Shown here piece after piece: positions 48 to 20,000 of a stretch of 20,000 nucleotides of DNA (its first letter is position 1; each line of letters begins with the position of its first letter). The position numbers and the translations under genes were made by a program. The stretch lies in IMG/VR virus record IMGVR_UViG_3300028194_000749, one strand, 5' to 3'. This DNA is from an uncultured virus (IMG/VR IMGVR_UViG_3300028194_000749) (taxonomy: Duplodnaviria > Heunggongvirae > Uroviricota > Caudoviricetes). A model generated the notes under the pieces. It ran no database searches, was not told where the DNA came from, and was given only the letters and a program-made list of their open reading frames with translations.

Positions 48-902
48 ATGCGTCTGGCTCAAGTTGGTTTGGGAACACTTCTTATTGGTGTGGCAGCCTA
101 TTTTGGTAGCGACACAGTTCGTAATAAAGTTTCAACTGTTTTCGGTGCAGATGCCATCACACCTGCCGAATTAGAAGAAATGCACATTGAATCCAGTGGA
201 GTTACTGTGGACACAGTTCCAGTTTCACAAGTTCAAGCATTCATGGGTTGGCAACAACTTCGCCTACAACACACTAACGCAGTTGCTAATGACTCACCAT
301 TTATGGATGGAGTCGTAGATGCCCAGCCTGTTTATACTAATCCCTTTGATATTGGATACAGTTTCGACCAAGAGTATTATGGAGCAGAAACTTTTGAAGC
401 AACTGGAGATTACGCTGGCCAAGGACCTTCTTCTTATAATGTGGCTAATCCACCTAATACTATTCCAACTGCTGGAACACCTTATCGTATTCAAGCACAC
501 ACTGGACAAGTTTATAGCACCGACCCCTCAACTGGAGTTAATGGACAACCTATTGCTTACTCTGGTGCTACACCAGTGGCACGACTTCCACCAGAAGTTA
601 CCAGCGACTTCCCATACATGGTAAGTCTAATCAATGTTCCTTTCCAAGAAATTGCTACATCTGACATCGGTAGTAACCGATTCGGCAGTTTGGCTCGTAA
701 CAGCACCGACGACAATGTAAATGCTCGATTCGGTGAAACTGCACTAAATCCTGAAGTTGATGCTTCTTACACATCACCCACAGGAGAGACCAAGCCATTG
801 AGTCAATGGCGAAGCAAATACACGGTTTTGCGACATTCAGACACCACAGTAAGTGCAATCCCATTTAGTGGCGGTGTCGAACTACAACTAAGGAGAGTAT
901 AA
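48..902 (+). CDS. Hypothetical protein with N-terminal membrane anchor (putative virion protein)
   Basis: N-terminal hydrophobic segment (VGLGTLLIGVAAYF); contains YGAETFEA motif. Start 48 preferred over 42 because of the 31-nt promoter spacing. Confidence 0.75.
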   Translation: MRLAQVGLGTLLIGVAAYFGSDTVRNKVSTVFGADAITPAELEEMHIESSGVTVDTVPVSQVQAFMGWQQLRLQHTNAVANDSPFMDGVVDAQPVYTNPFDIGYSFDQEYYGAETFEATGDYAGQGPSSYNVANPPNTIPTAGTPYRIQAHTGQVYSTDPSTGVNGQPIAYSGATPVARLPPEVTSDFPYMVSLINVPFQEIATSDIGSNRFGSLARNSTDDNVNARFGETALNPEVDASYTSPTGETKPLSQWRSKYTVLRHSDTTVSAIPFSGGVELQLRRV

Positions 903-904
903 TT

Positions 905-2572
905 ATGACTGGAGAAAAAATGCTATATGTTAAATCAAATGACTTTTGGGGATATGATGCGAGCGATTTTGATTCGTCTCTAAACTTTTACACCTACACA
1001 TGGACAGTTCCAGCAGCCATGTATGATGGTATGGATGATAGCGACCAAGGACGACTCTTCCCTTGTGCACTATTTTATGTCCAAGGAGTTACTGATAATC
1101 ACAATTTCCTAACACTTTCTATTGATGTTACGGGTGCCGATGCTAAAGTTCGTGGTATGCAAGGAGCCAAGCGTCGCACACTCAAGTTTGAAAAAGGTGT
1201 GCCTTATGCTTATTCCGTTGGTAGTTTGTCTATGAAGGAAGCACCTGCTGGTTCTTCTAACATCAGTGAGATTGAAACTGCGGTTAAAGATGGTTCGGCT
1301 ACTATGACTGGAGTATTCAATGTTGATTCTTTCCTAACTGATGCAGGTGAAATCGCAACAGCAGTTGGTTTGTCTACTGCCTCATCAGCAGAAAGTTATG
1401 AAGCAGAAGTTTCGGATTTCTATCCACAATCCTCTGCTGAAATTGGTAACGAACAATCTGGCCGTGGAGTTCCAGTGGCTTATGGCTCTGGCTCATCTCA
1501 ATATGTTGAACCACCAGTGGTTGAACTTGAAGCAGAAGTTTCAGATTTCTACCCTCAATCATCTGCCGAAATCGGTGATGAACAATCAGGGCGTGGAGTT
1601 CCTGTGTCTTACGGCTCAGGGTCCTCACAATATGTTGAGCCTCCTGTTGTGGAACTCGCAGCAGAAGTTTCTGACTTCTACCCACAATCTTCAGCCGAAA
1701 TCGGTGATGAACAATCTGGACGAGGAGTTCCTGTGTCTTATGGCTCTGGTTCTTCTCAATATGTTGAACCACCAGTTGTAGAACTCGGTGCTGAAGTTAT
1801 TGATGATGATTACATGGATGCTTATTCGGCTATGGGAGAACCAGATGCAGAATACGACCAAGGCTACAACGACCAACTCGACGAATCCCTCGGAATGAGA
1901 GATGGAGCAGAAGGAAACTTCCGCCAATCTATGAAATCCCGAAGAGATGAGTCAAAAGGGACTGAAAAATATGATAAGTCTCGCCCCTACTCTGGAGTAG
2001 ATACTATGGATGCACAAGGATACAACGACAAAATGGATGAATCATTGGGTATGCGACATCGTGGTCGTCATTCTCAATCAATGAAAGACCGCCGAGATGA
2101 AGCGGCTGCTATGGACCGAAAATACGGAATGAAGCGTAAGTATGATGATGTTATGACAATGGATGCTGATGGTATGATTACCGAAGGCTTGCCAGTTATT
2201 CCAGATTCCTACGGCACTAATTCTGCACTAAGTTCTGGACAAGGTGTGCCAGTTTGGTATGGTAGTGCAGATGGTATGGAAGATTACAACTACCAAAGCA
2301 ACGAGGGTTCATTGGATAGCGCAGGCTTCACAGAAGGCACTGTTAATCCTATGGAGTTCACTCGTCTTGGTGCTTATGATGTTCCAGTTATTTCTAACAG
2401 TTTAGGAGAAGATTCTTCTGAGATGGGATATGGAGTTCCACAATGGTATGGAGCCGACACTATGGCAGACAACTTCGAGGAATCTGCACCACCTATGAAT
2501 ATGGGTAAGAAAACAGTTGGTCTAATGGCTATCATTGGATTGCTTGCTGGAGCATACATGGCTCGTAAGTGA
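905..2572 (+). CDS. Modular repeat-containing protein with C-terminal TM anchor (putative polyprotein)
   Basis: 555 aa; three 43-aa repeats, two QGYND repeats, GLPV..WYG module; ends VGLMAIIGLLAGAYMARK; GGAG upstream. Confidence 0.85.
   Translation: MTGEKMLYVKSNDFWGYDASDFDSSLNFYTYTWTVPAAMYDGMDDSDQGRLFPCALFYVQGVTDNHNFLTLSIDVTGADAKVRGMQGAKRRTLKFEKGVPYAYSVGSLSMKEAPAGSSNISEIETAVKDGSATMTGVFNVDSFLTDAGEIATAVGLSTASSAESYEAEVSDFYPQSSAEIGNEQSGRGVPVAYGSGSSQYVEPPVVELEAEVSDFYPQSSAEIGDEQSGRGVPVSYGSGSSQYVEPPVVELAAEVSDFYPQSSAEIGDEQSGRGVPVSYGSGSSQYVEPPVVELGAEVIDDDYMDAYSAMGEPDAEYDQGYNDQLDESLGMRDGAEGNFRQSMKSRRDESKGTEKYDKSRPYSGVDTMDAQGYNDKMDESLGMRHRGRHSQSMKDRRDEAAAMDRKYGMKRKYDDVMTMDADGMITEGLPVIPDSYGTNSALSSGQGVPVWYGSADGMEDYNYQSNEGSLDSAGFTEGTVNPMEFTRLGAYDVPVISNSLGEDSSEMGYGVPQWYGADTMADNFEESAPPMNMGKKTVGLMAIIGLLAGAYMARK
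1403..1789 (+). repeat. 3 x 129-bp coding tandem repeat (43 aa)
   Basis: Units start at 1403, 1532, 1661 (AEVSDFYPQSSAEIG[ND]EQSGRGVPV[AS]YGSGSSQYVEPPVVEL-x); differences mostly synonymous. Confidence 0.97.
1859..2167 (+). repeat. 2 x ~52-aa diverged coding repeat
   Basis: QGYND[QK][LM]DESLGMR...QSMK[SD]RRDE...Y..V.TMDA at 1859 and 2015. Confidence 0.9.
2174..2272 (+). repeat. Dispersed coding module copy 1 (MITEGLPVIPDSYGTNSALSSGQGVPVWYGSAD)
   Basis: Near-identical to 16200-16298 and similar to 15165-15251. Confidence 0.95.
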
Positions 2573-2582
2573 GGCGATTCAA

Positions 2583-3254
2583 ATGTTTGGTGTGAATGCG
2601 TGGGATATAACTCCACATAAGTTTAATGCCTTTTCCGATGAATCAACGATTCGTGGAGAAATGAACCAAATGGCATCCAGAGGAATTGATATTCCTGCTT
2701 GGTCTTTTGTTAATATGGGTGACTCCGAGATGTTGGGGACACCAGTTGAAACTTTTGAGCGAACCTTTGTAGTGCCATTTGGAACTATTAAACAAACCAA
2801 AAAGGTTCTACATCCCGACCCTGCCAATCAAATTGGTGATGCGTGGAGTGGGGGCAAACCGATGTTTGATGTTAAGGTTCGTAGTGAACTCATACCGCTT
2901 GAAGGAGATGATACTCCATCATCTTTTATTGAAAAGCAAGTTGAAGACCCATTTATGCCCGATAATGCTCAATGGGAATTGTCTGGATTAGATACTTGGT
3001 TTGAAACTACGGAAACTACGGAAGAAGAGGAAGATGATTCCGATGATGAAGAACCTGAAGAAGTAGCCAAAGAGATTACAACCCCTCAAACAGAATCCAA
3101 AACTGGTTTGTATATCTTAGGTGGTATTGGAGTATTAGCCGCAGGTTATCTTTACTTTATTATTCGTAATCCCAAGGCTTATGTTCAAGGCAAGGCTATA
3201 TCCACCGCAGGCGGATTAGTCTCACAAGCGTTAGGTGCAGAACATGGTTCATAG
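2583..3254 (+). CDS. Acidic hypothetical protein with C-proximal TM helix
   Basis: ATG 2583 follows SD-like GAGGCGA, and the track start 2535 overlaps the previous gene; acidic tract, then GLYILGGIGVLAAGYLYFII. Confidence 0.8.
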   Translation: MFGVNAWDITPHKFNAFSDESTIRGEMNQMASRGIDIPAWSFVNMGDSEMLGTPVETFERTFVVPFGTIKQTKKVLHPDPANQIGDAWSGGKPMFDVKVRSELIPLEGDDTPSSFIEKQVEDPFMPDNAQWELSGLDTWFETTETTEEEEDDSDDEEPEEVAKEITTPQTESKTGLYILGGIGVLAAGYLYFIIRNPKAYVQGKAISTAGGLVSQALGAEHGS

Positions 3255-3739: not shown

Positions 3740-4648
3740 ATGTCTGACGACGGTATTTCACCTTTCTTAGCCGAGATTGAAAGTGAAGTCACAGTAGAAG
3801 CCGCAGGTAATCCTAACAACGCTGTGGCTTTTGATATGGAATCTGGTAAAAACTCTGTGGTAGATACCATGGAAGTTACTAAAGAAGATTTGAATACTTA
3901 TCTTAGTGCTTCACAAAGAAGTTCACTTCCTAAGCACCTTCAAGAAGGTATTGTTCGTAAGAAGAAAACCTCGGCTGCCGAAGAAGAGGCTATGCCAAGT
4001 TTTGAAGAGATGCGTGATGAAACTGCACCTCAAGACCCAGCCGAACCAGAACCAGATATTAGTCAAATGGGAGAAACCCCTGAACCCGGTTTTGCCGACC
4101 CAGATATGGGTCCTACTGAAATGGGAGGTCCTGATGATATGACAGGTGGCGAAATACTGGATAGTCCTTTGCCAGTGGAACTTCTATCTGAGCGACTTCA
4201 GAATCAAGAACAAGAAATGGTGGTGGCCAGCATGACACAAAAACAATTTGAAGATTGGTTGTTTCCAGCCGCAGAAGAATCTGATTGGGCATCGGGTCAA
4301 ATTGCTTTAGCCCGTATTATGGCAAATCTTAAAGCCGCAGGTTATGATTCTAAATCTTTGTCATTAAATGATGAACTCTACCCTGCTTATGTGCAAATTG
4401 CTTCTTCACTTTGGAGTCGTCAAAATCTGGTAACTCCAGTTCGTGATGATGTTTTATCCAGAGTCGAAAATGCTCCGGCTGCACAATTAGTGGCGACTTT
4501 GGAAGCCACCGCTTCCGCAGTTCCTACTGAACTCGCTGCTGAATTGTTTCGAGTCCCCATTGAAGAAACCACTAATTACACTCCATATTTAATTGTAGGA
4601 TTGGCTACAATCGCCGCTACGACCATTCCATTCTTTTGGAAGCGATAG
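3740..4648 (+). CDS. Acidic hypothetical protein with C-terminal TM anchor
   Basis: 302 aa; ends YLIVGLATIAATTIPFFWKR. Confidence 0.85.
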   Translation: MSDDGISPFLAEIESEVTVEAAGNPNNAVAFDMESGKNSVVDTMEVTKEDLNTYLSASQRSSLPKHLQEGIVRKKKTSAAEEEAMPSFEEMRDETAPQDPAEPEPDISQMGETPEPGFADPDMGPTEMGGPDDMTGGEILDSPLPVELLSERLQNQEQEMVVASMTQKQFEDWLFPAAEESDWASGQIALARIMANLKAAGYDSKSLSLNDELYPAYVQIASSLWSRQNLVTPVRDDVLSRVENAPAAQLVATLEATASAVPTELAAELFRVPIEETTNYTPYLIVGLATIAATTIPFFWKR

Positions 4649-5490: not shown

Positions 5491-5512
5491 GTTGAACAGG
5501 AGAGTTAAAAAC

Positions 5513-6532
5513 ATGAATGCAGTAACAGATGTAGTCGAAGATTCCTACGAAGGACTCATGGATGCAAAGTTTTATTCTGGCGTTGCTGGTATTGCCATTG
5601 GTGGAGTTCTCGGCAGCGTCGTGACTCTACTACCATTCTACAAACTTGGAACTTTTGGAAATATCGCTCGCACAGTAGTTACCGCAGGCTCAGGTGCTTA
5701 CCTTGTTCAAATGTCTCGTAAAGTTTCTGGAGATATGTCTTCCTTGTATCTTGGTGCAGGAACCATCCTCGGATTCATTGGTGTTACACAAGCCGTGGGA
5801 TACCTCACTGCATTCACAGGACTTTCTATCCCGGGATTCAATGGACTTGGTAGTGTTTTAATCGGTGAAGCAGAATCTTCAATTCTACCTCAGCGTGGCT
5901 CTGGCCGTGTTCTCGGTCAAGAAACAGCAACCCAAGATTTTTCTGACATCTACAATTCCGAAGATATTTTTGAGGAAGGCACACAACAAATGATTAACCG
6001 TGTTCCTGCTGACAACCCAGTTGATTCAGTCGTCGAACAAGCACCACTTGGCCATGGAGTTACTCAATGGTTTGGTGCAGACGGAATCTCTGCTACTGGT
6101 GGAGTTGCCCAAAGTTTTGGTGGAGTTGCTGAATCATCTTCCGTCAATCACAACCCACAGACTAATGTTAGTCAATATGTTTCCTCAGTTGATACTATGG
6201 GAACTCGTGCTATGAATGTGAACAAGGGTTCACCACTTACACAATCTGCCTATGGTAAGAACTATTCACCTCCAGTTTCATTCCAATCTGAAGAACCTAC
6301 TATGAAGATGGGACAAAGTGACGCACCAACTCCAAGTATGGGACAACTACCAGACATCTGGAGTTCTTACATCAAACCTTCCACCACTGCCGAAGAAATG
6401 GTAATGGACACCGTTAGAATGATTAACCCGGGACAACCTATCCAATGGTATGGTTCCGAAGAAAGTTCTACTGGAGTTCTATCACACCATATGTCTCACG
6501 CAGAAGGATTTGGAAGTGTCATAGGACAATAA
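5513..6532 (+). CDS. Membrane protein (Gly-rich N-terminal TM helices) with modular C-terminal tail
   Basis: About 3 hydrophobic helices, then segments bounded by GEAE/YNSE/FGAD/FQSE/TTAE/SHAE; start reassigned to ATG 5513. Confidence 0.85.
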   Translation: MNAVTDVVEDSYEGLMDAKFYSGVAGIAIGGVLGSVVTLLPFYKLGTFGNIARTVVTAGSGAYLVQMSRKVSGDMSSLYLGAGTILGFIGVTQAVGYLTAFTGLSIPGFNGLGSVLIGEAESSILPQRGSGRVLGQETATQDFSDIYNSEDIFEEGTQQMINRVPADNPVDSVVEQAPLGHGVTQWFGADGISATGGVAQSFGGVAESSSVNHNPQTNVSQYVSSVDTMGTRAMNVNKGSPLTQSAYGKNYSPPVSFQSEEPTMKMGQSDAPTPSMGQLPDIWSSYIKPSTTAEEMVMDTVRMINPGQPIQWYGSEESSTGVLSHHMSHAEGFGSVIGQ

Positions 6533-6812: not shown

Positions 6813-6828
6813 ATAGGAGATGAATAAT

Positions 6829-7416
6829 ATGAATATAAAAAGAATACTTGTGAATGAATATACTGTTGGCGGAAGCCTATTGCTGGTTGGTGCTGGATTC
6901 TTCAGCACTCGATTTACTGATGCTCTCTCTTATGAGTTGTTCACTCTACCCTCGGCTATCCCTATGATTGGCGGTGCATCTGTCACTGTTGGTCGTGTGG
7001 CTGGTTTAGTCCCACTAAGTTTGGGTATTGCATTCTTGCTCGGTAAGGTTCGCCCAGTTACTTCCAAAGTTCCAGTCGTTGATAAGGTCGTAGACCTTGC
7101 TGACCGAATCGTGAACGAAGTTTCAATGCCGGTTTCTGAAGAAACATCCACAATGGGTGCAGAGTTCTGTGCAGAACACAACGCTGAGTTCTCTGCTTGC
7201 GGTTGTGGCACTAAAGCGGCTGAAACCGTAGACCATCTTAATCCAACTGAAGTTGATTCCCCAGAAGTTTCTCTGGAAGCAGAATCAGGCTCCAAAAAAA
7301 AACTAAAATGGACTGACGCTGTGAAAGCGGCTCGCAAAGAGTTAGGCATCACTGGATTTAGCGCAGTTAAGAAGGAAACTCCCCTTTACAAGCGTGCTAA
7401 AGCACTAATGGCGTGA
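6829..7416 (+). CDS. Membrane protein with C-terminal DVNP-like basic module
   Basis: Two N-terminal hydrophobic helices; C-terminus WTDAVKAARKELGITGFSAVKKETPLYKRAKAL; GGAGATGA SD favours ATG 6829. Confidence 0.8.
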   Translation: MNIKRILVNEYTVGGSLLLVGAGFFSTRFTDALSYELFTLPSAIPMIGGASVTVGRVAGLVPLSLGIAFLLGKVRPVTSKVPVVDKVVDLADRIVNEVSMPVSEETSTMGAEFCAEHNAEFSACGCGTKAAETVDHLNPTEVDSPEVSLEAESGSKKKLKWTDAVKAARKELGITGFSAVKKETPLYKRAKALMA

Positions 7417-7557: not shown

Positions 7558-8442
7558 ATGACAACTGTTAGTTTAACTTACTATCACGATAGTAAGAACT
7601 ATGGTAACTTTGGTGATGAGTTATCACCATTTATTATTCAAAAACTACTAAGTTCCGAGTATAAACTCCTACTTAATGCCCCAGAATCCGACCATTCTTT
7701 GCTTGGAATAGGTTCTATTATACATCTTGCTAAAGAAAATGATTATGTTTTTGGTAGTGGTTTGGGAGTTTTAGAACCAGAATCATTACCACATTTGAAC
7801 ATTTGTGCCGTCCGAGGACCCTTAACTCGTGAAACTTTAGCCCATTATGATATAGATTGCCCAGAAGTTTATGGTGATGCGGCTTTGTTACTACCTAAGT
7901 TTTATACACCTACTTATTGTGAAGGACTTTCTACTAAGATTGGTTTTGTTCCACATTTTAATCATTACGATAATTATGCATCCCTCGAACTTCCTGAAAA
8001 CTTTCACTTGATTGACCCAACTATGGAGTGGAGACAAGTTATTGATGAGATTACCTCTTGCCATGCAATTGTTTCACAAAGTCTACATGGTTTAATTTGT
8101 GCTGATGCTTACCAAATCCCCAACATTAGATTTGCAGAAAACTTTTGGTTCTGCAATATGTGTCACAGCCTGAGCACGCAGAGTGCACTCAACTTAGATG
8201 AAACTTTTAACTTATCTACTTCTGGGGATGACCGTCCAGCCTGTAATTGCGGTTGGAAATACAATTGTTGGGGCAATAATTTACTACATCATAATGGAGA
8301 TTTTAAGTTTCAAGATTATTTTATGAGTCAAGGTCGAAAGAGTATTTTCTTAACTACATTAGAATCTTATAATGAAACTTTACTCTATACCGACGGCAAT
8401 CAGATAGATTTAGATTTACTTATCTCGGTATTTCCCTTCTGA
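7558..8442 (+). CDS. Polysaccharide pyruvyltransferase-like (ExoV-like) protein
   Basis: Motifs NFGDELS, GIGSII, AVRGPLTR, YGDAALLLP, IGFVPH, SLHGLICADAY, FKFQDYF. Confidence 0.85.
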   Translation: MTTVSLTYYHDSKNYGNFGDELSPFIIQKLLSSEYKLLLNAPESDHSLLGIGSIIHLAKENDYVFGSGLGVLEPESLPHLNICAVRGPLTRETLAHYDIDCPEVYGDAALLLPKFYTPTYCEGLSTKIGFVPHFNHYDNYASLELPENFHLIDPTMEWRQVIDEITSCHAIVSQSLHGLICADAYQIPNIRFAENFWFCNMCHSLSTQSALNLDETFNLSTSGDDRPACNCGWKYNCWGNNLLHHNGDFKFQDYFMSQGRKSIFLTTLESYNETLLYTDGNQIDLDLLISVFPF

Positions 8443-8473
8443 TTTCAGGCACATTCGGATAAAAAACCCAAAC

Positions 8474-8482
8474 CTTTAAGTA
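8474..8482 (+). promoter_or_regulatory. TATA-like box CTTTAAGTA (capsid operon promoter)
   Basis: 31 nt before ATG 8505 of a 7-codon mini-ORF. Confidence 0.8.
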
Positions 8483-8504
8483 GTCAAAAAGACCAATATA
8501 GAGT

Positions 8505-8528
8505 ATGAGCAACCAAGTGTTGTTCTAA
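8505..8528 (+). other. 7-aa upstream mini-ORF MSNQVLF
   Basis: ATG AGC AAC CAA GTG TTG TTC TAA at exactly the leaderless-start position. Confidence 0.5.
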
Positions 8529-8551
8529 ACCTAAAATGGAGATGAAAAAAT

Positions 8552-9259: not shown

Positions 9260-9260
9260 T

Positions 9261-10459: not shown

Positions 10460-10464
10460 GGGCT

Positions 10465-10492: not shown

Positions 10493-10496
10493 TTAG

Positions 10497-10505
10497 TATT
10501 AAGTA
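10497..10505 (+). promoter_or_regulatory. TATA-like box TATTAAGTA
   Basis: 31 nt before ATG 10528. Confidence 0.75.
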
Positions 10506-10527
10506 AGTGTTATGTCATATCATTACC

Positions 10528-11457: not shown

Positions 11458-11460
11458 GTA
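11452..11460 (+). promoter_or_regulatory. TATA-like box CTTTAAGTA
   Basis: 32 nt before ATG 11484; contains the previous TAA stop. Confidence 0.8.
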
Positions 11461-11483
11461 GGTCATACGACCTATGCTATACT

Positions 11484-12845
11484 ATGAGCCGCATTGAAAT
11501 TGAAACACCTATTGGACCCATTACTGCTAACCTTGATGAACTCGGAGAAAGTCTTTCTTATCTTATGACTAAGGTAAAGAAAACAGACAAAGTAGACCAA
11601 GCCATTTCTAAGTTCTTACAAGTTGATGAAGATACCACCCATCCTATTGAGTCCAAGCGTAAGTATTACCACGATAGGTCTTATATCTTTTGGATGGAAG
11701 CCCTGATGGAAGTTATCAATACTGGCTATGATATTACTCGTGCCGAAAATTACAACTACGGCGACACCATGACCGCACCTATTTGGTTTGATGAAAAGGT
11801 CGGAGATGTTACCGTTAAAGTGCCACACAAACTCGTTATGTATGTGCAATCTAAAACTAATACTGAAGAAAGATTTGTTATTATGTTCACTCCGTTTGAT
11901 GAATACGAAGTAGATATGGTATTTCAATTTAGAAGTGGTTGTTTTGATTACTCAGAGTTTTGGCAAACAGTAGAAGATTACTTTTACAATCAAGGTTTGC
12001 TTAAGGGCGCACACTTTACTGCGGATTTCAAGATGTTAGATACACCTAAACTTGATTGGAATGATATTGTTATCAAATCTGAAGACCGTCGGATTTTAGA
12101 CCGAAACTTAGTAAAGTTTATTGATTCCGTAGAGTTGTATCGTAGCAAAGGATTAAGAGGAAGTCGAGGTGTGTTGTTGGCGGGTCCTCCCGGCACAGGG
12201 AAAACTCTAAGTTGTAAAGTTTTAATGAACTCTTTGGATGCTACGGTATTGTATGTTTCTCGTGATGCCGTTACTGATGTCGGACAAATAACAGAACTTT
12301 ACAAAATGGCTCGGAGGTTATCTCCATCAGTAGTTATTCTGGAAGATATTGACACGCTGGGAGGGCTTGGTCGAGATGAAGGCGACCATCCACTACTCGG
12401 TGAGTTCCTGAATTGTTTAGCAGGTGTGGAAGATAACGACGGTGTAGTAACTTTGGCTACTACCAATCATCCTGAAAAACTGGATTGGGCTTTGACAGAC
12501 CGACCCGGCCGATTTGATGTCAGACTAAAGTTTGACTATCCTGATGAGAAAAGTCGTATGGCAATTTTGGATAAGTATTTGACACCATTCCAAACTAAAA
12601 ACATTAAACTTAAATCTCTAATGAAGAGAACTGATAAGTTTTCTGGTGCCTATCTACAAGAAATTGTTCAGTCTGCCTTTATGGTAGCCCACGAAGAATG
12701 TGGTTATTGTGATGAACCCACCATTACGCAGAATCATTTGGAACAAGCCTTGACTCAAATGGAATCCCAACGAGCCACAGTAAGCCGGGAAAAAGGTTTG
12801 ACCTATAATGGCACAGAAATGACTTACGAGGAATTGTATAACTAA
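11484..12845 (+). CDS. AAA+ ATPase (classic AAA clade, single ATPase domain)
   Basis: Walker A GPPGTGKT, Walker B VILEDID, sensor/SRH ATTNHPEKLDWALTDRPGRFD, FSGAYL; C-terminus LYN. Confidence 0.93.
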   Translation: MSRIEIETPIGPITANLDELGESLSYLMTKVKKTDKVDQAISKFLQVDEDTTHPIESKRKYYHDRSYIFWMEALMEVINTGYDITRAENYNYGDTMTAPIWFDEKVGDVTVKVPHKLVMYVQSKTNTEERFVIMFTPFDEYEVDMVFQFRSGCFDYSEFWQTVEDYFYNQGLLKGAHFTADFKMLDTPKLDWNDIVIKSEDRRILDRNLVKFIDSVELYRSKGLRGSRGVLLAGPPGTGKTLSCKVLMNSLDATVLYVSRDAVTDVGQITELYKMARRLSPSVVILEDIDTLGGLGRDEGDHPLLGEFLNCLAGVEDNDGVVTLATTNHPEKLDWALTDRPGRFDVRLKFDYPDEKSRMAILDKYLTPFQTKNIKLKSLMKRTDKFSGAYLQEIVQSAFMVAHEECGYCDEPTITQNHLEQALTQMESQRATVSREKGLTYNGTEMTYEELYN

Positions 12846-12882: not shown

Positions 12883-14967
12883 ATGGCATTCATTTTACCT
12901 ACCATTATTTGTCCTGCGTGTGGTTTTGACCCGTATGACATGATTTTTTATGCCGTTAAACAAGAGTTTCCCGATAGAAACCCTCGTGATGTTATTGAAG
13001 AAATGTCTGACGAAGAATACAAAGAGGAAGCAGAGTTCTATGTTTTTGAAAATCACATAGATTATTGTCCTAATCAAGATAAGTTGATGAAGATTTCTGC
13101 TGGCTTTGAAACCGAAGAAGAAGCATTTGCTTATGCTTACAATCAAGGCCATGCAGCCTCTCGTAAGAATACTGCTTACAAACCTAATCCAACCGGCAAA
13201 GATACTATGGATTTCAAAAAGATATTCAAGCAGCGTGCTGAATCTGCTGGCAAAAAGTCTTGTTCAGATTGTAGTCAAGATGAAGAAGATGGCTACACAA
13301 TTAGCACTTGCTATGATTGTGGTGAAGAGTTCTGCGAAGACTGTTTCTGCTCTGATTGCGATAATTGTGATGATGATTGCACTTGTAAGTGTGTTGAATG
13401 TGGTGACAAAGACAGTTATAAGTATGAACTTGCAGACGGTGGTAATGTTTGCAGGGATTGTGGCAGCCGTTGTGACGAATGCTACAAAACATTCCTCCAA
13501 GATGAAGTCAGAGGCAACAACATAAACTATAAATCTTACTGTAATGACTGTCGCTCAGAGATGGGAGAATGTCATATTTGCGAGGATATATTGATTTACG
13601 GTTATAACGATAATGGGTCTTGCGAAGTTTGTGATGAATCAGTTTGTCAGGAATGTAGTTCCGAAACCGAAGACCCCGAAAAACCCGGTTATGTTGGACA
13701 TGATGTAGCCTGTGATAACTGTGTCAAAGAGAAAAAGTTAGTAGTTACTGCTGAAACTTTTGAGGCTCCATATGCTGGTGCAGGTAGTTTGATGGGTATT
13801 GGCCAAGGCACAGGACTCGGAAGTTTCACTTCTAAAGAACTTACCGAAAGTAGTGCTATTCATGGTGATTTTGATTCAGCCAGTCTAAATTATTCTGGAA
13901 AACAAAACTTAGAAGTCCGTGCTGAAGCAGATGCCAAACAAACTCCTTTTGTATGGTGTGTTGTAAGGGCTTTTGATGAAGACGATGGAAGCGGAGTGGG
14001 AGAAGTTGAGAATACAGAAGTATTAGGTGTTTTCAAATATAAGAAGGATGCTGATAAAGCCATGAAATCGGTTTATAATGAAATGAAATCGCAAGGATTG
14101 GAAGAAGATTATGATAAAGATGGTTTTTATACAGATAATGGATTTATTCATACGACTAAATCAAAATTAGGGCAATTATGGATGCCCTATGGAGCATATA
14201 GGTTTTGGAATGCAGAATCCTTTGAAGCAGACTGGCGAGATTTGCCTCGTGATAGTGCTGGTCGTTGGATGTCATGGACATCATTCACCCCCACTTCTGA
14301 AGAACCCGAAAACTTAGATGCTTATATTGACATCCAACCCGCACAGTCTGGCACCTTCCCTCTGCCAGTAGAAAAACAGGAGACTTTTTCAGAATCTCAA
14401 ATCACTCTGCGAGAATTATCAGAAACCATGAATGCACTTACTGGAAATCTACTTGGTTTTGATATGGCCTACCGCACCGTTCTTGATATGTTGGGTTCAC
14501 AAGATAGCCCAGAACGCCGAGAAGCCTTGTTATCTACTATGGAAGAAACCATTATGACTTTAGAGTTTTACGAAGAAACAGACTATGATGGTGATATTCA
14601 AATGATGGTCGATATTATGCGTCAAAATGGTATGAATCCACCTCCACAATTTGAAGAAGAAGTTCTGGCTCGCTATCAATTTGAAGATAAATGGGCAGCA
14701 GAGGATAAAAAGATTCTCAAACCAGAAGTTCCTGCTGATTACAATATCAACCAAACTTTTGGCAACAACATGGTTTTGATGTCGGAAGATGATGAGGGTC
14801 CTACCATCGAAGATTTCTTTAGAGATATATCAAAAGTTTTGAATAAGTATGGTGAGTTCTCATGGGACTCTGAAGCAGGCGAAGAAGGACTCTACTTTTC
14901 AGGAATGTTACTACCTAATAATGGAGCCGATAACTTCTTCCAATATGATGAAGATTTCTCCGAGTAA
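12883..14967 (+). CDS. Large acidic modular protein with Cys-rich (CxxC-repeat) region
   Basis: 694 aa; about 27 Cys in 13243-13755; segments bounded by QRAE, TAETFEA, VRAE, NAESFEA, WAAE, LMSE. Confidence 0.85.
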   Translation: MAFILPTIICPACGFDPYDMIFYAVKQEFPDRNPRDVIEEMSDEEYKEEAEFYVFENHIDYCPNQDKLMKISAGFETEEEAFAYAYNQGHAASRKNTAYKPNPTGKDTMDFKKIFKQRAESAGKKSCSDCSQDEEDGYTISTCYDCGEEFCEDCFCSDCDNCDDDCTCKCVECGDKDSYKYELADGGNVCRDCGSRCDECYKTFLQDEVRGNNINYKSYCNDCRSEMGECHICEDILIYGYNDNGSCEVCDESVCQECSSETEDPEKPGYVGHDVACDNCVKEKKLVVTAETFEAPYAGAGSLMGIGQGTGLGSFTSKELTESSAIHGDFDSASLNYSGKQNLEVRAEADAKQTPFVWCVVRAFDEDDGSGVGEVENTEVLGVFKYKKDADKAMKSVYNEMKSQGLEEDYDKDGFYTDNGFIHTTKSKLGQLWMPYGAYRFWNAESFEADWRDLPRDSAGRWMSWTSFTPTSEEPENLDAYIDIQPAQSGTFPLPVEKQETFSESQITLRELSETMNALTGNLLGFDMAYRTVLDMLGSQDSPERREALLSTMEETIMTLEFYEETDYDGDIQMMVDIMRQNGMNPPPQFEEEVLARYQFEDKWAAEDKKILKPEVPADYNINQTFGNNMVLMSEDDEGPTIEDFFRDISKVLNKYGEFSWDSEAGEEGLYFSGMLLPNNGADNFFQYDEDFSE

Positions 14968-15005: not shown

Positions 15006-16568
15006 ATGAGTTGGACTGAATCAGACGCAGCACACAAACTTATTCGTCGTAAGAACGCAAAAGCACAAGGTATATCTCGTCGTAAGGCTCGTCAATCTAA
15101 AACTTCTCGCTCCAAAATGAATGCTGAAGGAATGGAAATGACTCCCGATATTATGGATTATCCCGGTTTGCCAGTTGTTCCTGATTCTTACGGCACAAAC
15201 TCTGCTCTTACCAGTGGACAAGGAGTTCCTCAATGGTATGGCTCTGCTGAACATCACATGACTTTATCCGATTTGAGTGATACTCCCTTTGGAGCATTTG
15301 TTAAACCAGATGGCACAGTAATTATGGTAATCAGTGATAAAAGTGTCAAAGGAAAAGAACAAGAAGCAATAGATTGGGGATTAAATCATTTTGGAAAGCA
15401 GTATGAGGGCGTTAAGTTTGTTAAATATGCTTCTGAATACGATGCTGAATCACGCTTTGATAAGTTGGCAGATAAGATTGCCAAGCAATACGAGAAGAAA
15501 GGTATGAATCCTCAAGAAGCCCGTGAAGTTGGCAAGAAAACTGCTTACAAAATCGGTGCTGCTAAATACGGCAAGGCAGGCATGGCTGCTAAGTCCCGTG
15601 CTGGTCGTATGGCTGCGGAATCCTCTGACGATATTCGCACTGCTGCCGACCTTGTAGCGTGGGCAGATTCTAATGAGGGTAACTTGCCATTGATGTCTAC
15701 TATGAATGCTATGGGAGATAATGAATACCTTAGTATGATTGATTCCGATGATGATGAAATAGATTTCGTATTTTTGGATGGAACTATGGCAACTTGTATA
15801 TTAGATGACAAAACTCTTTCAACTTTCGTAGTAGCCTATGAATCAGAATCTTTTGAGGCTATGGGTCGTTATGACCCAAGTGAAAATGATATTCTCGAAA
15901 CTAAGGAAAAGTTTCAACTTTCCTTCCCTTCCTTTGAGATGAGTCCCAGTTCTATACAATATCTAACTTTCCAACAAGGCTCATCAAATAAGTTCCACTC
16001 TTTTTGGTTGGCTCAAGATAGTTCTGGTGGATGGTATGCTTTCAATGCTTATGCTCGTATGGGTTATTCACCAAAAATCTTCCGTATTATTGGTCCTACT
16101 TCGCAAGAACAGGCTGCCCGTGCTATGCAAAGTAAGATGAATGCTAAACTTCGCAAGGGTTACAGTAACAGTTCTAAAGAGTTCGGCCTTCGTGCTGAGA
16201 TGATTACAGAAGGGCTTCCAGTTATTCCAGATTCCTACGGCACTAATTCTGCTCTAAGTTCTGGACAAGGAGTTCCACAATGGTATGGTAGTGCTGAATA
16301 TCAAGACATGATGTGTTGTGGCGAACAGATGGAATATCACGAAAGTAATAAAGTCAATTATTTCTATTGTCCTATTTGTGAAGAATCTATCAAAACCAAC
16401 GAGTTTGATGCTGAAGCCTCTGATGAAGACTGGGACAAAACTGAATACGAATACAAAGAAGTAGAACTCGCTAAACCATTCCGCACAGCATTTATGGCTT
16501 CGCTCGGATTTATCGTAGCACCTTTGGTAGCCCTAAGTGGTTTGGCCTTTTTCTTAGGAGATGAATAA
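15006..16568 (+). CDS. Modular protein with WGR-like domain, basic modules, Zn-ribbon and C-terminal TM anchor
   Basis: 520 aa; SNKFH...NAYARMG...KLRKGY; CCGEQM...CPIC; two GLPV..WYGSAE modules; ends FMASLGFIVAPLVALSGLAFFLGDE. Confidence 0.85.
   Translation: MSWTESDAAHKLIRRKNAKAQGISRRKARQSKTSRSKMNAEGMEMTPDIMDYPGLPVVPDSYGTNSALTSGQGVPQWYGSAEHHMTLSDLSDTPFGAFVKPDGTVIMVISDKSVKGKEQEAIDWGLNHFGKQYEGVKFVKYASEYDAESRFDKLADKIAKQYEKKGMNPQEAREVGKKTAYKIGAAKYGKAGMAAKSRAGRMAAESSDDIRTAADLVAWADSNEGNLPLMSTMNAMGDNEYLSMIDSDDDEIDFVFLDGTMATCILDDKTLSTFVVAYESESFEAMGRYDPSENDILETKEKFQLSFPSFEMSPSSIQYLTFQQGSSNKFHSFWLAQDSSGGWYAFNAYARMGYSPKIFRIIGPTSQEQAARAMQSKMNAKLRKGYSNSSKEFGLRAEMITEGLPVIPDSYGTNSALSSGQGVPQWYGSAEYQDMMCCGEQMEYHESNKVNYFYCPICEESIKTNEFDAEASDEDWDKTEYEYKEVELAKPFRTAFMASLGFIVAPLVALSGLAFFLGDE
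15165..15251 (+). repeat. Dispersed coding module copy 2
   Basis: GLPVVPDSYGTNSALTSGQGVPQWYGSAE. Confidence 0.93.
16200..16298 (+). repeat. Dispersed coding module copy 3
   Basis: MITEGLPVIPDSYGTNSALSSGQGVPQWYGSAE; 35-nt exact match to copy 1. Confidence 0.95.
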
Positions 16569-16569
16569 T

Positions 16570-16929
16570 ATGGATATGAAACAATTTATTACACTTGGAG
16601 CCGTCATCGGTGGATTATACCTCGCCTACAAAAATAAAGATATGTGGATGTCAGAAACTTTTAATGCTCATGTTTCACCATCACAAGACCAATTCGTGGC
16701 ACGCAACTGGGGAACAGTTGAAAGAGTTTCCACTGAGCGTAACATCATGGCAGGTCAGGCCGTCGGTCAGACTATTAACTACAACGGCATGGGTATCACT
16801 CCTGCAACTGTGGGTGCAACTAATGGCATAGGCCAAGTTATGGATTTAAGTGTCTACGCTGCTACTATGCGAAGCACAGACCCTATCTGGGGTCAGAACT
16901 ATCCCGGTCGTGCCATCGGTCAAGAGTAA
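16570..16929 (+). CDS. N-terminally anchored small protein
   Basis: FITLGAVIGGLYLAY then MSETFNA; start context TAGGAGATGAATAATATG identical to that at 6814-6831. Confidence 0.8.
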   Translation: MDMKQFITLGAVIGGLYLAYKNKDMWMSETFNAHVSPSQDQFVARNWGTVERVSTERNIMAGQAVGQTINYNGMGITPATVGATNGIGQVMDLSVYAATMRSTDPIWGQNYPGRAIGQE

Positions 16930-16939: not shown

Positions 16940-16974
16940 GTCGGCCAACGCCAGACATATTGAGGTTAGCCTAT

Positions 16975-17508
16975 ATGCTTGATTTTGCAGAACTCCGTAA
17001 CCGTATTCTGATGGGAGAAGACGAAGTTCCCGAAGAAATTACAGAATCACCAATTACTAAAGAGTTTATGCGCCCTGCTACGGGTTTCCCAATGTTATTT
17101 GGTGGTCTATCAGTAGCACTGGTTATTGCTGACAAACTTAAACTTGAAATGCTTTCTAAAGAAGGCGAATACAATTACCGTCCTTTGGTTTTGTCGGTGT
17201 TTGGTTTCTTACCTCTTGGTTTTGGACTTGGAGAATTAGTTCGAGGTCTGCAAGCCCAGAAACAATTTGACCGCTACGAAAAGTTAGTGAGTGCTGCTGA
17301 AGAAGAAGTAGAAAGACTGGTCGAAGAAGATGAAGAACAAGATGCTCAAGATAACACTAACGAAGGCAATTATTATGAAGCCGAATCTCAGTTTAATCTC
17401 TCTTCTTTTGGACCCGAAACCGGAGTTTTCCAAAACGGTGCTTTCGGTCAATCAATGCCTACTATTGGTCCGGGTCAAACCTATGAACAAAGAACTTTTG
17501 GATGGTAA
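16975..17508 (+). CDS. 2-TM membrane protein with acidic tail
   Basis: Two hydrophobic helices, acidic helical stretch, YEAE motif; start is ATG 16975 or TTG 16960. Confidence 0.8.
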   Translation: MLDFAELRNRILMGEDEVPEEITESPITKEFMRPATGFPMLFGGLSVALVIADKLKLEMLSKEGEYNYRPLVLSVFGFLPLGFGLGELVRGLQAQKQFDRYEKLVSAAEEEVERLVEEDEEQDAQDNTNEGNYYEAESQFNLSSFGPETGVFQNGAFGQSMPTIGPGQTYEQRTFGW

Positions 17509-17541: not shown

Positions 17542-18438
17542 ATGAGCGAGAAGTTTTATTGTGTAGGGTGCAAAGAGCATTATGACCTCGATGTGACTGA
17601 GGCTGTTAAGAAACCCTCCAAAGGAGATTCTTTCCGTCATTCATTAGTGAGTCAATGTCCTAAAGGACACAAGACCACCAAAATCTGCAAACAAGAAGTT
17701 TATGATACCTACTCTTCTTCTATGAGTGCAGAAGACCCTCTGACCGCAGGACCATCCCCGGCTGGAGGACCATCCGAGATTACACCCGCCGGCCCTTCTG
17801 CTACACCTCTGGAAAGAACAGATGCAGGAGTTCCTTCGGATTTTGAAAGTGAAACTTTTACCGGAGCAGAAGTTATTCCTGAAGGACCTTCCAGCGAACC
17901 AGTTGATGAAGGCGAAACTTTTGAAGCAACACAAGTTGTTGGAACTATGAGTCCCGGTGCAGGAATCAATGAAGCCCTTGAACCACTTCAAGGAGGATTA
18001 GAAAATGGTGATGAGCCTTCTCTTGTTCCTGCTGATAGTTTCCAACCTCAAGGCAACGGCCATGTTATCGGCCAACACACAGATTCTTATAATACCACAC
18101 CTATGCACGCTGAAGAAGATTTTGAACCATACTTTGAACTTTGTATAGTTAGCAACGGCACTGTTGGCGATATTGTAGAAGATTACGATGAAGCCCAAGA
18201 AGAAAAAGCATTTACAGAATGGGAAAACCATGTTAATGAAGACGGACCCCATGTTCTAATCTTTTATGATTCTGCTGATGAAGCAGGTATGATTGTGGCA
18301 GGAGATGATTTCATGGAAGTTTATGATTCTGAATCACTTCTACCAACAGTTCGCAGTAATCGCAAAGCACTTATGGCTTCTGCTGCCGCAGCCTTAGTTA
18401 TTGGTTTAGTTTGGTATCGCAGTTCACGCTCTCAGTAA
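17542..18438 (+). CDS. N-terminal Zn-ribbon, Pro/acidic modular protein with C-terminal TM anchor
   Basis: FYCVGCK...CPKGH (recalls DUF5679-like ribbons); MSAE, FESETFTGAE, GETFEA, MHAE, YDSE; ends ALMASAAAALVIGLVWYRSSRSQ. Confidence 0.85.
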   Translation: MSEKFYCVGCKEHYDLDVTEAVKKPSKGDSFRHSLVSQCPKGHKTTKICKQEVYDTYSSSMSAEDPLTAGPSPAGGPSEITPAGPSATPLERTDAGVPSDFESETFTGAEVIPEGPSSEPVDEGETFEATQVVGTMSPGAGINEALEPLQGGLENGDEPSLVPADSFQPQGNGHVIGQHTDSYNTTPMHAEEDFEPYFELCIVSNGTVGDIVEDYDEAQEEKAFTEWENHVNEDGPHVLIFYDSADEAGMIVAGDDFMEVYDSESLLPTVRSNRKALMASAAAALVIGLVWYRSSRSQ

Positions 18439-18470: not shown

Positions 18471-19049
18471 ATGCCAACCTTTGAAGCAGGATACAACATT
18501 CAATGCGACCCCGGTGATTTGTATAGCCGTAAGTGCTATGTCGTTACTGGTGCAGGAGTTAGACAAGAAATTATTGGGTATGATTCTGGTGGAAATCCTA
18601 TCTCAAAACAAGCCACTACTGCCGCAGGCACAGCATGGCAACCCTCAATCACCGTTCTCGACCAAGATGGAAATCCCTATCAGCCATATGGTGCTGGTGG
18701 TATTCCATGGACAATGGGTGGAGGAATGACTGGAATTGGAAAAGTTATGCCTTCTTCTGGTGCTGACCCACAAGATTGGAAATACATTACTGAATCTGCT
18801 CCGGGTGCTCAAGCCCGAATTGCTTACGAAGAACGCACTTGTAATCCCCTATGGCCTACTTTTGGCTGTAAGACTGGAAATACTAATCCTACTGGAGTTA
18901 CTACTGCACCCGTCAATGGACAACCAGACGCAGGAACTCTTGGTTGGCTCAAAGAATACTTTGGAATGTGGAATGCCGAAGAAAAGTATGAAAAGAAATC
19001 CACAGAATCCAAGATTATGTCTTGGTGGAACAGTTTAATAGGTTCGTGA
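18471..19049 (+). CDS. Gly/Thr/Pro-rich hypothetical protein
   Basis: 192 aa with its own promoter; MPTFEA and MWNAE motifs; Trp-rich amphipathic C-terminus. Confidence 0.8.
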   Translation: MPTFEAGYNIQCDPGDLYSRKCYVVTGAGVRQEIIGYDSGGNPISKQATTAAGTAWQPSITVLDQDGNPYQPYGAGGIPWTMGGGMTGIGKVMPSSGADPQDWKYITESAPGAQARIAYEERTCNPLWPTFGCKTGNTNPTGVTTAPVNGQPDAGTLGWLKEYFGMWNAEEKYEKKSTESKIMSWWNSLIGS

Positions 19050-19053
19050 TACT

Positions 19054-19347
19054 ATGGCCGATGAGAAAGACCTCATCGAACAAAAGTTTGATGAACAACA
19101 AGAAGAACAAGTTTTGGCAGCCCGTCATGCTTGGCGCAGTTTGTTAGTTCCAGCCGTCGGCTCTGCGGCCTTCTTTGCATCAGCCATTGTAGGCTTTATT
19201 CGCACTTATCGTAAGTATGGATTTCCACAACACGCTTTCAAACCTTTTGACTATGGTTTAATGAGTATTCCCTTTGTGATTATCGGTATGGCTTTCTTAT
19301 ATCAAGCCGAAGAACAAAAACAAGAAGATGGCGAAGCGGAGGTCTGA
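19054..19347 (+). CDS. Small 2-TM membrane protein
   Basis: 97 aa; two hydrophobic helices. Confidence 0.8.
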   Translation: MADEKDLIEQKFDEQQEEQVLAARHAWRSLLVPAVGSAAFFASAIVGFIRTYRKYGFPQHAFKPFDYGLMSIPFVIIGMAFLYQAEEQKQEDGEAEV

Positions 19348-19352
19348 AACTT

Positions 19353-20000
19353 ATGCCTTTCAAATCTCGTGCTCAAAAAGAGTATCTAAGAATTAACGAA
19401 CCAGAAATCTATGAACGCTGGATGCGTGAATACCATGCCGAATCCAACCAAAGTTTTACTCCTCCTGCTACGGCAGTTGCGGCTGCCAAAAAAGGTTTAG
19501 CCCAAAGAAAGAAATGGGGTCGTGGAGGACTATCGCCCGCCGAGGCTGCTTCGCAGGGTATTGATTCTGGAGTTACTCGTGCTCGTAAGATAAGTTCTGG
19601 AAAAGTTTCACGCCATGATGTCCGTCGGATGTCAGCGTTTAATCGTCATCGAAAGAATAATAATCCCAGTAAAAAGATGCCAGATGGTGGACCCACAGCA
19701 GGAACTATTGCTTGGAATCTATGGGGCGGAAGTTCTGGTGTAAATTGGGCTAAGAAAAAGTCTGCTGCTATGAATGCTGAAGATTTTGAAATGATGTGTC
19801 GCCAATGTAAAATTGGCAATTATGAAAGTTGCTTGTATGGTGAAACTGTGGATACTGGTGGATTTTGGCTTAGTAATTGTGTTCCAGACCCATCAATGAA
19901 TGCAGAAGGGCGTTTCTCGGCTGAAAAATACTATGAAGAAGACCCTGAAAGGTATTATTCTTCCCAATTTGAACCTTATGATTCTTTCCCGACCAAAGAC
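19353..20000 (+). CDS. Modular protein, 3'-truncated by window end (not in ORF track)
   Basis: GGAGGT SD; open for 216 codons: MPFKSRAQKEYL...YHAE / ...PPATAVAAAKKGL...IAWNLWGGSSGVNWAKKKSAAMNAE / CxxC segment / SMNAE. Confidence 0.85.
   Translation, partial: MPFKSRAQKEYLRINEPEIYERWMREYHAESNQSFTPPATAVAAAKKGLAQRKKWGRGGLSPAEAASQGIDSGVTRARKISSGKVSRHDVRRMSAFNRHRKNNNPSKKMPDGGPTAGTIAWNLWGGSSGVNWAKKKSAAMNAEDFEMMCRQCKIGNYESCLYGETVDTGGFWLSNCVPDPSMNAEGRFSAEKYYEEDPERYYSSQFEPYDSFPTKD

Follow-up and report, generated by a model that had tools for sequence, protein, structure and literature searches.

Proteolytic maturation has a central part in how tailed phages, adenoviruses, poxviruses and African swine fever virus (ASFV) assemble; in archaeal viruses it is almost unexplored. 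The prohead proteases gp21 of T4 and gp175 of phiKZ trim many head proteins after Glu. Adenain, poxvirus I7 and ASFV S273R process core proteins at (M/I/L)-X-G-G↓X, A-G↓X and G-G↓X, respectively (the arrow marks the cut; in sequences of the virus described here and its relatives, it marks a proposed cut or a module edge). The picornavirus-like 3C proteases take Gln or Glu at P1, a small residue at P1′ and, in some of them, a hydrophobic residue at P4. Here we describe a short motif, [M/F/Y/W]-x-Ala-Glu, which recurs in proteins encoded by a 20,000-nt stretch of DNA of an uncultured virus (IMG/VR record IMGVR_UViG_3300028194_000749; the whole stretch is referred to as the window) and which may mark processing sites of this general kind.

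Two described cases come closest in their chemistry or in their host domain. According to PMC10052503, the SPN3US prohead protease gp245 cuts C-terminal to A-X-E in many head proteins, the propeptides have several sites, and the protease cleaves itself. In SSV1 (Fuselloviridae), a protease of unknown identity cuts the precursor of the capsid protein VP1 at a conserved Glu, and no protease gene is recognizable in the genome (PMC5748691). SSV1 VP1 is the only comparable archaeal-virus case that we found. The motif of the window is real, is selected at the protein level, and is conserved as a feature across a virus clade.

Enrichment, profile and conservation of the motif

An earlier note on the window, made from its letters alone, had proposed a [hydrophobic]-x-[A/S]-E cleavage motif, often doubled, in at least ten open reading frames (ORFs). 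The strings quoted for it (YGAETFEA, SAESYEAE, TAETFEA, NAESFEA, ESESFEA, FESETF, GETFEA, MSETFNA and the single forms) are all present and in place in the translations. We counted the strict form of the motif, [M/F/Y/W]-x-Ala-Glu, against shuffles that preserve the composition of each protein. It occurs 20 times in the window, compared with about 5.1-5.2 expected (z 6.6), and this count was reached in 0 of 500 shuffles. The excess over Ala and Glu composition is hence confirmed. The mirror form ending in Glu-Ala occurs 5 times, with 5.0 expected. Controls of the same composition gave 2 versus 2.6 for Ala-Gln, 3 versus 2.9 for Ala-Lys and 1 versus 5.3 for Gly-Glu, and those ending in Thr-Glu and Leu-Glu are at or below expectation. 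As the mirror and neighbor controls are flat, a composition artefact was ruled out. Ala-Glu is the most over-represented dipeptide of the 24 window ORFs (63 versus 38.7), and its excess lies almost wholly at sites with M/F/Y/W two residues upstream; L/I/V at that position gave 10 versus 6.3, and other residues 33 versus 26.0. For the doubled form, E[ST][FY][EN]A, the window gives a count of 7 against an expectation of 0.1, and the doubling consists partly of two overlapping F-x-A-E units, as in MNAETFEAE or MGAEFCAEHNAE.

The profile was built from 298 distinct sites. P4 is Phe in 114 of them, Met in 86, Tyr in 80 and Trp in 18, and P3 is mostly Gly, Glu, Asp, Ala, Ser or Asn. The informative positions are P4, P2 (Ala, with Ser weaker) and P1 (Glu). 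This part of the proposed motif stands, while a generic hydrophobic P4 is too broad because Leu, Ile and Val are only weakly enriched. On the downstream side, P1′ is Thr, Asp, Gly, Ser or Glu, Phe is enriched 3.9-fold at P2′, and Ala is found at P4′. Pro is absent from P3 in all 300 motif sites, compared with 61 of 956 other Ala-Glu sites, and stands at P1′ in 2 of 300 versus 25 of 956 (background 4.7%). Exclusion of Pro at these two positions would be expected of a peptide bound in an extended form across the scissile bond. The codons of Ala and Glu differ between motif sites, and therefore selection acts on the protein; on the same ground, a DNA-level repeat was ruled out.

The window was compared with four relatives (G1-G4, or G001-G004), IMG/VR contigs of 123-166 kb that were recovered via the paired capsid-like paralogs of the window, with 58-84% identity in these proteins. 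They are linear records, two of the four with inverted terminal repeats, and G1 is largely collinear with the window. G1 encodes PolD DP2 and DP1, TBP, TFB, PCNA, an Hjc-like resolvase, an MCM-like protein, ribonucleotide reductase and PolX, together with three adjacent C5 DNA methyltransferases and a Get3/ArsA ATPase. Because the relatives encode PolD, TBP, TFB, PCNA and the Hjc-like resolvase, the window is judged to come from a large archaeal virus or virus-like element, which supports the archaeal assignment made before. The relatives suggest a large archaeal virus clade; our search of full-text literature, with subscription journals outside its coverage, found no published description of this virus group and no account of the motif.

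Genome-wide, each relative has 67-77 strict sites, compared with 23-30 expected; the sites cluster around the part that shows synteny with the window. In the G1 region corresponding to the window and its neighbors (contig 66-105 kb), the count is 37 versus 8.5. ORF 15006 of the window has 401 metagenomic homologues at E<=0.001, and the best 120 of these 401 were reduced to 32 by removing near-duplicates; these 32 have 125 sites compared with 18.1 expected (z 23). Enrichment in homologs is therefore found both in the four relatives and in this family. It is selective with respect to protein class. The 155 unannotated ORFs of G1 have 61 sites versus 22.2 (z 8.1), while its 42 Pfam-annotated enzymes and capsid-like paralogs have 12 versus 8.2 (z 1.3). 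As predicted, the strict motif is missing from every window protein that had been named beforehand as a control: the family 2 glycosyltransferase (GT2), the pyruvyl transferase, the AAA+ ATPase and the capsid-like proteins. Individual sites turn over: among comparable sites, 7 of 9 are kept in G1, 2 of 10 in G2, and 0 of 2 in each of G3 and G4. The density of the motif stays enriched in all four relatives despite this turnover, which is as would be expected of short motifs in disordered regions and would fit cleavage and binding alike.

Modules, linkers and membrane anchors of the motif-bearing proteins

All sizeable ORFs of the window are on the + strand. Those bearing the motif or its variants are listed below; TM stands for transmembrane, and TM segments are predictions from a crude scan of hydropathy.

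42..902, +: ORF with an N-terminal TM segment and a doubled YGAE↓TFEA at 378-401; the motif is kept in G1 (YGAESFNA) and absent from G2
905..2572, +: 555-aa tail-anchored modular protein with SAESYEAE at 1385-1408, and LEAE
2535..3254, +: ORF with a TM segment near its C-terminus, followed by LGAE↓HGS at 3231-3242
3740..4648, +: 302-aa tail-anchored protein with FLAE, LLSE and LAAE, the last one 14 aa before the anchor
5492..6532, +: N-terminal multi-TM domain and a long C-terminal tail with YNSE, FQSE, YGSE, GVAES, TTAEE and SHAEG
6820..7416, +: N-terminal TM segments, a gappy linker with MGAE↓FCAE↓HNAE and LEAE↓SGS, and a basic C-terminal domain
12883..14967, +: 694-aa modular protein with TAE↓TFEA (from 13747), VRAE and WNAE↓SFEA (14206-14226; NAESFEA from 14209)
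15006..16568, +: 520-aa tail-anchored polyprotein-like ORF with a WGR domain at residues 290-395 (Pfam E=1.7e-5) and a TM helix at 492-516
16561..16929, +: small ORF with a hydrophobic N-terminus directly before WMSE↓TFNA (16645-16665)
16960..17508, +: two TM segments, an acidic helix and YEAE↓SQFN (17374-17385); YEAE is kept in G1 and G2, not in G3
17542..18438, +: 298-aa tail-anchored protein with MSAE, FESE↓TFTGAE, GE↓TFEA, MHAE and YDSE, the last one 10 aa before the anchor
18471..19049, +: ORF starting with M-P-TFEA-G, i.e. the downstream half of the doubled motif at the protein start, and with WNAE↓EKYE near its C-terminus
19054..19347, +: small ORF that has two TM segments and a C-terminus carrying YQAE↓E and GEAEV
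19353..20000, +: ORF that runs off the 3′ end of the window; it has YHAE, two copies of MNAE, and FSAE

We used ORF 15006 to describe the placement of sites relative to folded domains. Its sites end at E41, E82, E144, E148, E205, E281, E398, E431 and E470; they include ESESFEA (from 15840) and the single forms MNAE, YDAE, MAAE, LRAE and FDAE. In an AlphaFold2 model built from 62 sequences, with a mean predicted local distance difference test (pLDDT) score of 55, all nine sites are located in segments with pLDDT<50, which cover 51% of residues. These segments flank a helical hairpin (residues 150-184), a β domain (208-276) and the WGR domain (290-395), the last of which is modeled with pLDDT above 88. 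The model thus agrees with the proposal that the sites lie at boundaries between distinct segments. The alignments of ORFs 6820 and 5492 with their orthologs have a similar appearance. In the former, the Ala-Glu sites are conserved islands in an indel-rich linker, and in the latter, several sites are kept in G1 and G2 with variable flanks.

The edges of shared modules coincide with the motif. In comparisons of the five proteomes, 28 of 488 internal ends of high-scoring segment pairs (HSPs) are within 3 residues of a motif Glu, compared with 8.9 +/- 2.7 for random positions. The mode of the HSP ends is at offset 0, on the Glu itself (13 cases), while the HSP starts are diffuse. Residues 28-145 of ORF 19353, bounded by YHAE↓ and MNAE↓, correspond to the N-terminus of a different G1 ORF, and two other ORFs contain the module that runs from YDAE to MAAE in ORF 15006 (residues 147-206). 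Residues 291-349 of ORF 12883, bounded by ...TA↓ETFEA and ...VRAE↓, recur in other ORFs of G1 and G2; the C-terminal half of ORF 905 (residues 319-527) is homologous to a different G1 ORF; and HSPs between ORF 17542 and G2 have MSAE and MHAE as their precise end points. One module comes after YESE↓SFEAM in the window, whereas in G1 it opens an ORF as M-T-D-FEAM. Besides such window-internal modules found as G1 N-termini, the reverse case is also found. Hence, several of the ORFs that had been called otherwise unrelated share shuffled modules, and that description has to be withdrawn. The observation that repeats and modules are in register with the motif holds. The 3.1 copies of a 129-nt tandem repeat (1400-1798) start on EAE↓VSDF. 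They give ORF 905 a 43-aa tandem repeat, each unit of which has L-x-A-E↓VSDF at its borders. Modules shared between ORFs stop at the motif. Up to 13 sites are found per protein, with tandem copies 4-5 residues apart.

Three side observations concern individual segments. A peptide module of ~30 aa with the consensus GLPVIPDSYGTNSAL-SG-GVP-WYGSAE has five copies in the window and 7, 5 and 1 in G1, G2 and G3, respectively. Its GVPxWYG cores in the window are at 2243-2263, 2432-2452 (both in ORF 905), 6056-6076, 15222-15242 and 16269-16289. The module is nearly always followed by AE or AD and has a motif site ~10 residues upstream; a site usually stands on each side. Cutting at these sites, if it occurs, would set free a peptide of 35-40 aa. 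Behind LEAE↓SGS, ORF 6820 closes with a strongly basic stretch of 44 residues (7285-7416; KKKLKWTDAVKAARKELGITGF...KRAKALMA), which G1 and G2 conserve; it may form a small module that binds nucleic acid while tethered to a membrane anchor. The first 290 residues of ORF 12883 (12883-13750) are packed with CxxC pairs and have a weak FYVE-like match (E=0.004), which suggests several putative zinc ribbons before the first TAE↓TFEA site.

Terminal TM anchors had been reported for most of the ten ORFs named at the outset, and the hydropathy scan finds them in 6 of 10, with ORF 16561 borderline and below threshold. A single TM segment at the extreme C-terminus is predicted in four window ORFs and in 9-18 proteins per relative. 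Proteins with a single C-terminal TM segment have the motif at 4.4-6.1 times expectation, compared with 1.9-2.5 times for those with no predicted TM segment. Motif-rich proteins lacking any TM segment also occur. The data support membrane tethering as an association with the motif, not as a rule. A candidate for anchor insertion is encoded by the clade itself. The Get3/ArsA-family ATPase of G1 (L008:6473-7615) matches PF02374 with E=3.5e-61, and it is a core gene with orthologues in all four relatives (52-66% identity). This viral Get3 homologue would presumably insert the tail-anchored proteins. In the full-text literature, with the coverage given above, no report of a virus-encoded Get3 was found for archaeal viruses. 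If true, tail-anchored topology together with a viral Get3 would be a new viral route of proteins to the membrane.

Candidate enzymes and readings of the motif

The relatives were inspected for an enzyme. The Pfam scans of G1 revealed no protease of the T4 gp21/phiKZ gp175 type (S77/S80), nor of the adenain, I7 or S273R type, although remote homologues would escape such scans. Regular-expression scans of the relatives' ORFs for G-x-S-G, G-x-C-G and D-T/S-G found nothing conserved. Motif scans yielded two metalloprotease-like candidates:

G1 L041: HExxH candidate, 444 aa
G1 L012:3193-3996: JAB-like candidate, 268 aa

The L041 family came from the scan for HExxH. Its residues H85, E86, H89, H93 and D124 are invariant in 23 sequences, and in the model (mean pLDDT 84) the HExxH residues are located on a helix at 72-91, with an SH3-like barrel at residues 260-355. 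In VIA-align, the N-terminal 170 residues align modestly with zinc peptidases of one kind (M48/M56/minigluzincin-like), namely ZMPSTE24 (Z 6.9, root mean square deviation (rmsd) 4.6, 152 aligned), selecase (Z 5.5, rmsd 3.8, 99 aligned), BepA (Z 5.4), BlaR1 (Z 5.2), abylysin (Z 5.1) and jannalysin (Z 5.0), all of which are under the tool's caution line of 8. Foldseek gave nothing at E<=0.001, the sequence profile gave nothing against PDB, and Pfam, NCBIfam and PHROGs gave no match; ESM Atlas gave a weak lead to DUF2201_N (0.76). The profile finds L041 in G1, G2 and G3 and not in G4, where orthologues of the flanking genes are adjacent to each other. G4, possibly an incomplete record, is the relative that uses the motif most, and L041 is not found there; a protease of the motif would have to be present wherever the motif is used. 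Directly upstream of L041 in G1 lies the gene of a 1322-aa protein (L008:15236-19201) with MoxR-like AAA features (AAA_lid_2, weak AAA_3, AAA_5).

The JAB-like protein is present in all four relatives with 43-70% identity. Its four orthologues have an invariant EREWMCYVY ... WTIHGHPLKDGKIYTGRQYFSSTDI, which gives the pattern E, H-x-H and S-x-x-D, with the invariant residues E32/E34, H83, H85, S100 and D103. We take E...H-x-H...S-x-x-D to be the metal and catalytic signature of JAB domains. It agrees with the residues of Tox-JAB-2 in PMC3482391. That paper states that DUF4329 partly overlaps Tox-JAB-2, that 'E, H[ST]H, S, D' is conserved, and that versions occur in large DNA viruses and phages (PMC3482391). 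The candidate matches DUF4329 near full-length and below threshold (E=0.0068; 16.8 bits with a cut-off of 28.6; 94 of 116 positions), and so does a second member of the family (E=0.014). A six-frame search with PF14220 matched one of four relatives (E=0.07). Against 1.84 billion representatives, the profile gave 54 matches, mostly fragments of the same family; none of the eight scanned has a supra-threshold Pfam family. The protein has a C-terminal TM segment with an F-x-S-E or F-G-A-E site beside the anchor.

We propose that the motif marks endoproteolytic processing sites, where a cut after Glu would separate the modules of tethered polyproteins. In our judgment this is the most likely reading, and it is about as likely to be right as wrong. 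It draws on the position-specific profile with its exclusion of Pro, the restriction to certain substrates, the placement in linkers, the module edges on Glu, and the ORFs that start with the downstream half of the motif. A dedicated protease would read an extended stretch in which P4 is Phe, Met or Tyr, P2 is Ala or more rarely Ser, and P1 is Glu, and would cut after Glu, often before [S/T]-F-[E/N]-A. Its substrates would be modular, with folded domains and the recurrent ~30-aa peptide on disordered linkers, and in many of them either N-terminal anchors or one C-terminal anchor would provide the hold on the membrane. During virion morphogenesis, the cuts would free the modules from each other and from the anchor. 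The favored enzyme would be the core tail-anchored JAB-like (Tox-JAB-2/DUF4329-like) protein, placed on the same membrane face as the substrates. We infer cleavage, along with its scissile bond, timing, products' fate and enzyme, and on the same footing we take the motif-bearing proteins to be virion proteins. A fuller version is doubtful, namely that a widespread clade of PolD-encoding marine archaeal viruses with linear genomes of ~120-170 kb builds its particles from Get3-inserted tail-anchored polyproteins, which a co-anchored viral metalloprotease of the JAB kind cuts after Glu in [F/M/Y]-x-A-E into small proteins and peptides of 30-40 aa. If true, nothing equivalent to this maturation system would have been described for archaeal viruses, and the specificity would be unusual for a JAB enzyme. 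The motif code offers a handle for dividing dozens of uncharacterized proteins into functional units. From it follow exact predictions of peptide termini, to be looked for in ocean metaproteomes that already exist.

Several findings weigh against processing. Several conserved sites are only 3-11 residues from the C-terminus, a poor fit to the release of cargo, and a site lies within 40 aa of the anchor in only 20 of 64 crudely called tail-anchored proteins. Paralogues and orthologues repeat shared events, so that neither HSP ends nor sites can be counted as independent. A Glu/Ala-specific maturation protease had been postulated; motif scans gave the two candidates above, and in G1 Pfam found no peptidase family among 190 ORFs at E<=1e-3 and no recognized protease in two smaller sets, five of seven further ORFs (E<=0.1) and a group of 23 core unknowns (E<=1). 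As for the JAB-like protein, Prok-JAB (PF14464) matches none of the four relatives, and its profile found no solved structure among PDB sequences. JAB peptidases are known for cuts after Gly-Gly and not for cuts after Glu. Zhang et al. (2012), who defined Tox-JAB-2, suggested that such divergent JAB domains may be nucleases, not peptidases (PMC3482391). Finally, every supporting sequence feature is also compatible with a motif of disordered linkers that is bound and stays uncleaved.

The last point leads to docking, in which linker copies of a short linear motif would bind a repeated partner (a capsid-like lattice, a membrane protein or the AAA+ ATPase) and recruit the modular proteins to the particle, or hold them there, by avidity. 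The cargo-loading peptides of encapsulins are a parallel. The disordered linkers, the up to 13 sites per protein in closely spaced tandem copies and the conserved copies close to C-termini suit such binding; exclusion of Pro at P3 and P1′ suits strand addition equally well, and no protease was recognized by Pfam in G1 or by PF14464 in four relatives. A free-standing binding motif is, however, not expected to produce the asymmetry of shuffled-module homology, which ends on Glu and starts diffusely. Against docking also stand the reappearance of internal modules as ORF N-termini with the downstream half only, TFEA or FEA, and the lack of an identified partner. Docking is a serious rival to processing, though we regard it as rather unlikely. 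A passive signature of linkers or junctions, serving folding, solubility or module inheritance and recognized by nothing, would account for the many sites that arrived by module duplication (the tandem repeat, and the GVPxWYGSAE module with its five window copies) and for the quick turnover of individual sites. It does not account for a position-specific profile and an exclusion of Pro that hold in 298 distinct contexts, for a motif that is retained in proteins without homology to each other and also in G4, the most distant of the relatives, or for flat mirror and neighbor controls and varying codons, and we consider it improbable.

Cutting might also be done by a host enzyme. Specifically, the viral PAN/Cdc48-like AAA+ protein would dock on the host 20S proteasome via a Leu-Tyr-X tail, and linkers would be clipped after Glu and aromatics while folded modules are spared. 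The AAA+ gene lies within the same gene block and is present in the window and in all four relatives, its best NCBIfam match is the proteasome-activating nucleotidase (E=4e-30), and no viral protease family was detected by Pfam in G1. Four of five orthologues end with L-Y-[N/G] (tails ELYN, DLYG and RLYG), which resembles the HbYX motif for proteasome docking, but the G3 orthologue ends with S-F-G (ASFG). Moreover, the pore loop, read by eye, is [T/Q/S/E]-[D/N/E]-V-G in all five orthologues, with no aromatic residue, which is atypical for an unfoldase. We know of no proteasomal cleavage that follows a four-residue motif. This route is very improbable.

Neighboring genes and comparison with known systems

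Pfam recognizes four gene products in the window: the pyruvyl transferase, the GT2 enzyme, a classical AAA ATPase and the WGR domain of ORF 15006. On the motif-bearing ORFs, PHROGs and NCBIfam gave no match except one family of unknown function for ORF 19353. The genes between the motif-bearing ORFs form an internal control without any strict site:

7558..12845, +: whole internal-control block, which also holds two small TM ORFs
7558-8442, +: polysaccharide pyruvyl transferase (Pfam)
8552-9259 and 9261-9938, +: paired capsid-like paralogs
10507-11457, +: GT2 glycosyltransferase (Pfam)
11484-12845, +: AAA+ ATPase (Pfam), C-terminus ...ELYN

The capsid-like proteins are adjacent paralogous pairs. 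The relatives have a second pair ~16 kb downstream (in G1, L010:18320-19791), and more copies occur in G4. For ORFs 8552 and 9261, neither a known capsid family nor a capsid fold was established, and the label 'capsid' is unverified. Their profile gave a top E of 0.18 against PDB, to a capsid VP2; the ESM Atlas leads to PRD1 P2/P3 (0.75-0.77) are at chance level; and no phage record resembling the capsid-like protein was found. The C-terminus of ORF 8552 has a poly-Ala/Ser tail arising from a 15-nt tandem repeat (9204-9244). Adjoining the second capsid-like pair in G3 is a 1968-aa ORF (38027-43933, spanning L024-L025) composed mostly of collagen-like G-x-x triplets (...GPSGTSGATGVTGPTG...), which could be a fibre.

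Among known systems, 3C proteases are similar in the shape of the specificity profile and in polyprotein logic. They differ in belonging to RNA viruses, in processing a single polyprotein and in having a chymotrypsin-like fold; here, no G-x-S/C-G-type motif is conserved among the relatives' ORFs. Adenain, I7 and S273R share with the present motif a hydrophobic P4, a small P2 and the processing of many virion proteins, and ASFV has true polyproteins. Their P1, however, is Gly, whereas P1 is Glu here and [MFYW].GE is not enriched, and there is no C5, C57, C63 or C48 family match by Pfam in G1 and no conserved G-x-C-G among the relatives' ORFs. SSV1 VP1 has one site in one protein, unlike the motif recurring over many proteins here, and as Glu is the first residue of its mature form, its cut is before Glu, while the one proposed here is after Glu. 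As to the enzyme, the core candidate resembles Tox-JAB-2 in its invariant E...H-x-H...S..D. It differs in having H-G-H instead of H-[ST]-H and in its C-terminal membrane anchor, and its matches are below the Pfam cut-offs.

Prohead proteases are like the proposed system in that a short motif ending in Glu recurs in many proteins, which in phages are virion proteins. The phage motif has Ala at P3, whereas here Ala is at P2 with an aromatic residue or Met at P4. Phage sites mainly follow N-terminal propeptides; here, sites lie between modules along the whole protein, and many substrates are membrane-anchored. Unlike the T4 and phiKZ type, the window belongs to an archaeal virus, and Pfam finds no S77/S80-type protease, HK97-type capsid protein or portal in the relative G1. 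The motif thus appears to resemble maturation of the prohead or adenain type, but on the enzyme side it can be placed with neither. The closest parallel would be the trimming of head proteins by cuts after Glu in T4 and phiKZ-like phages.

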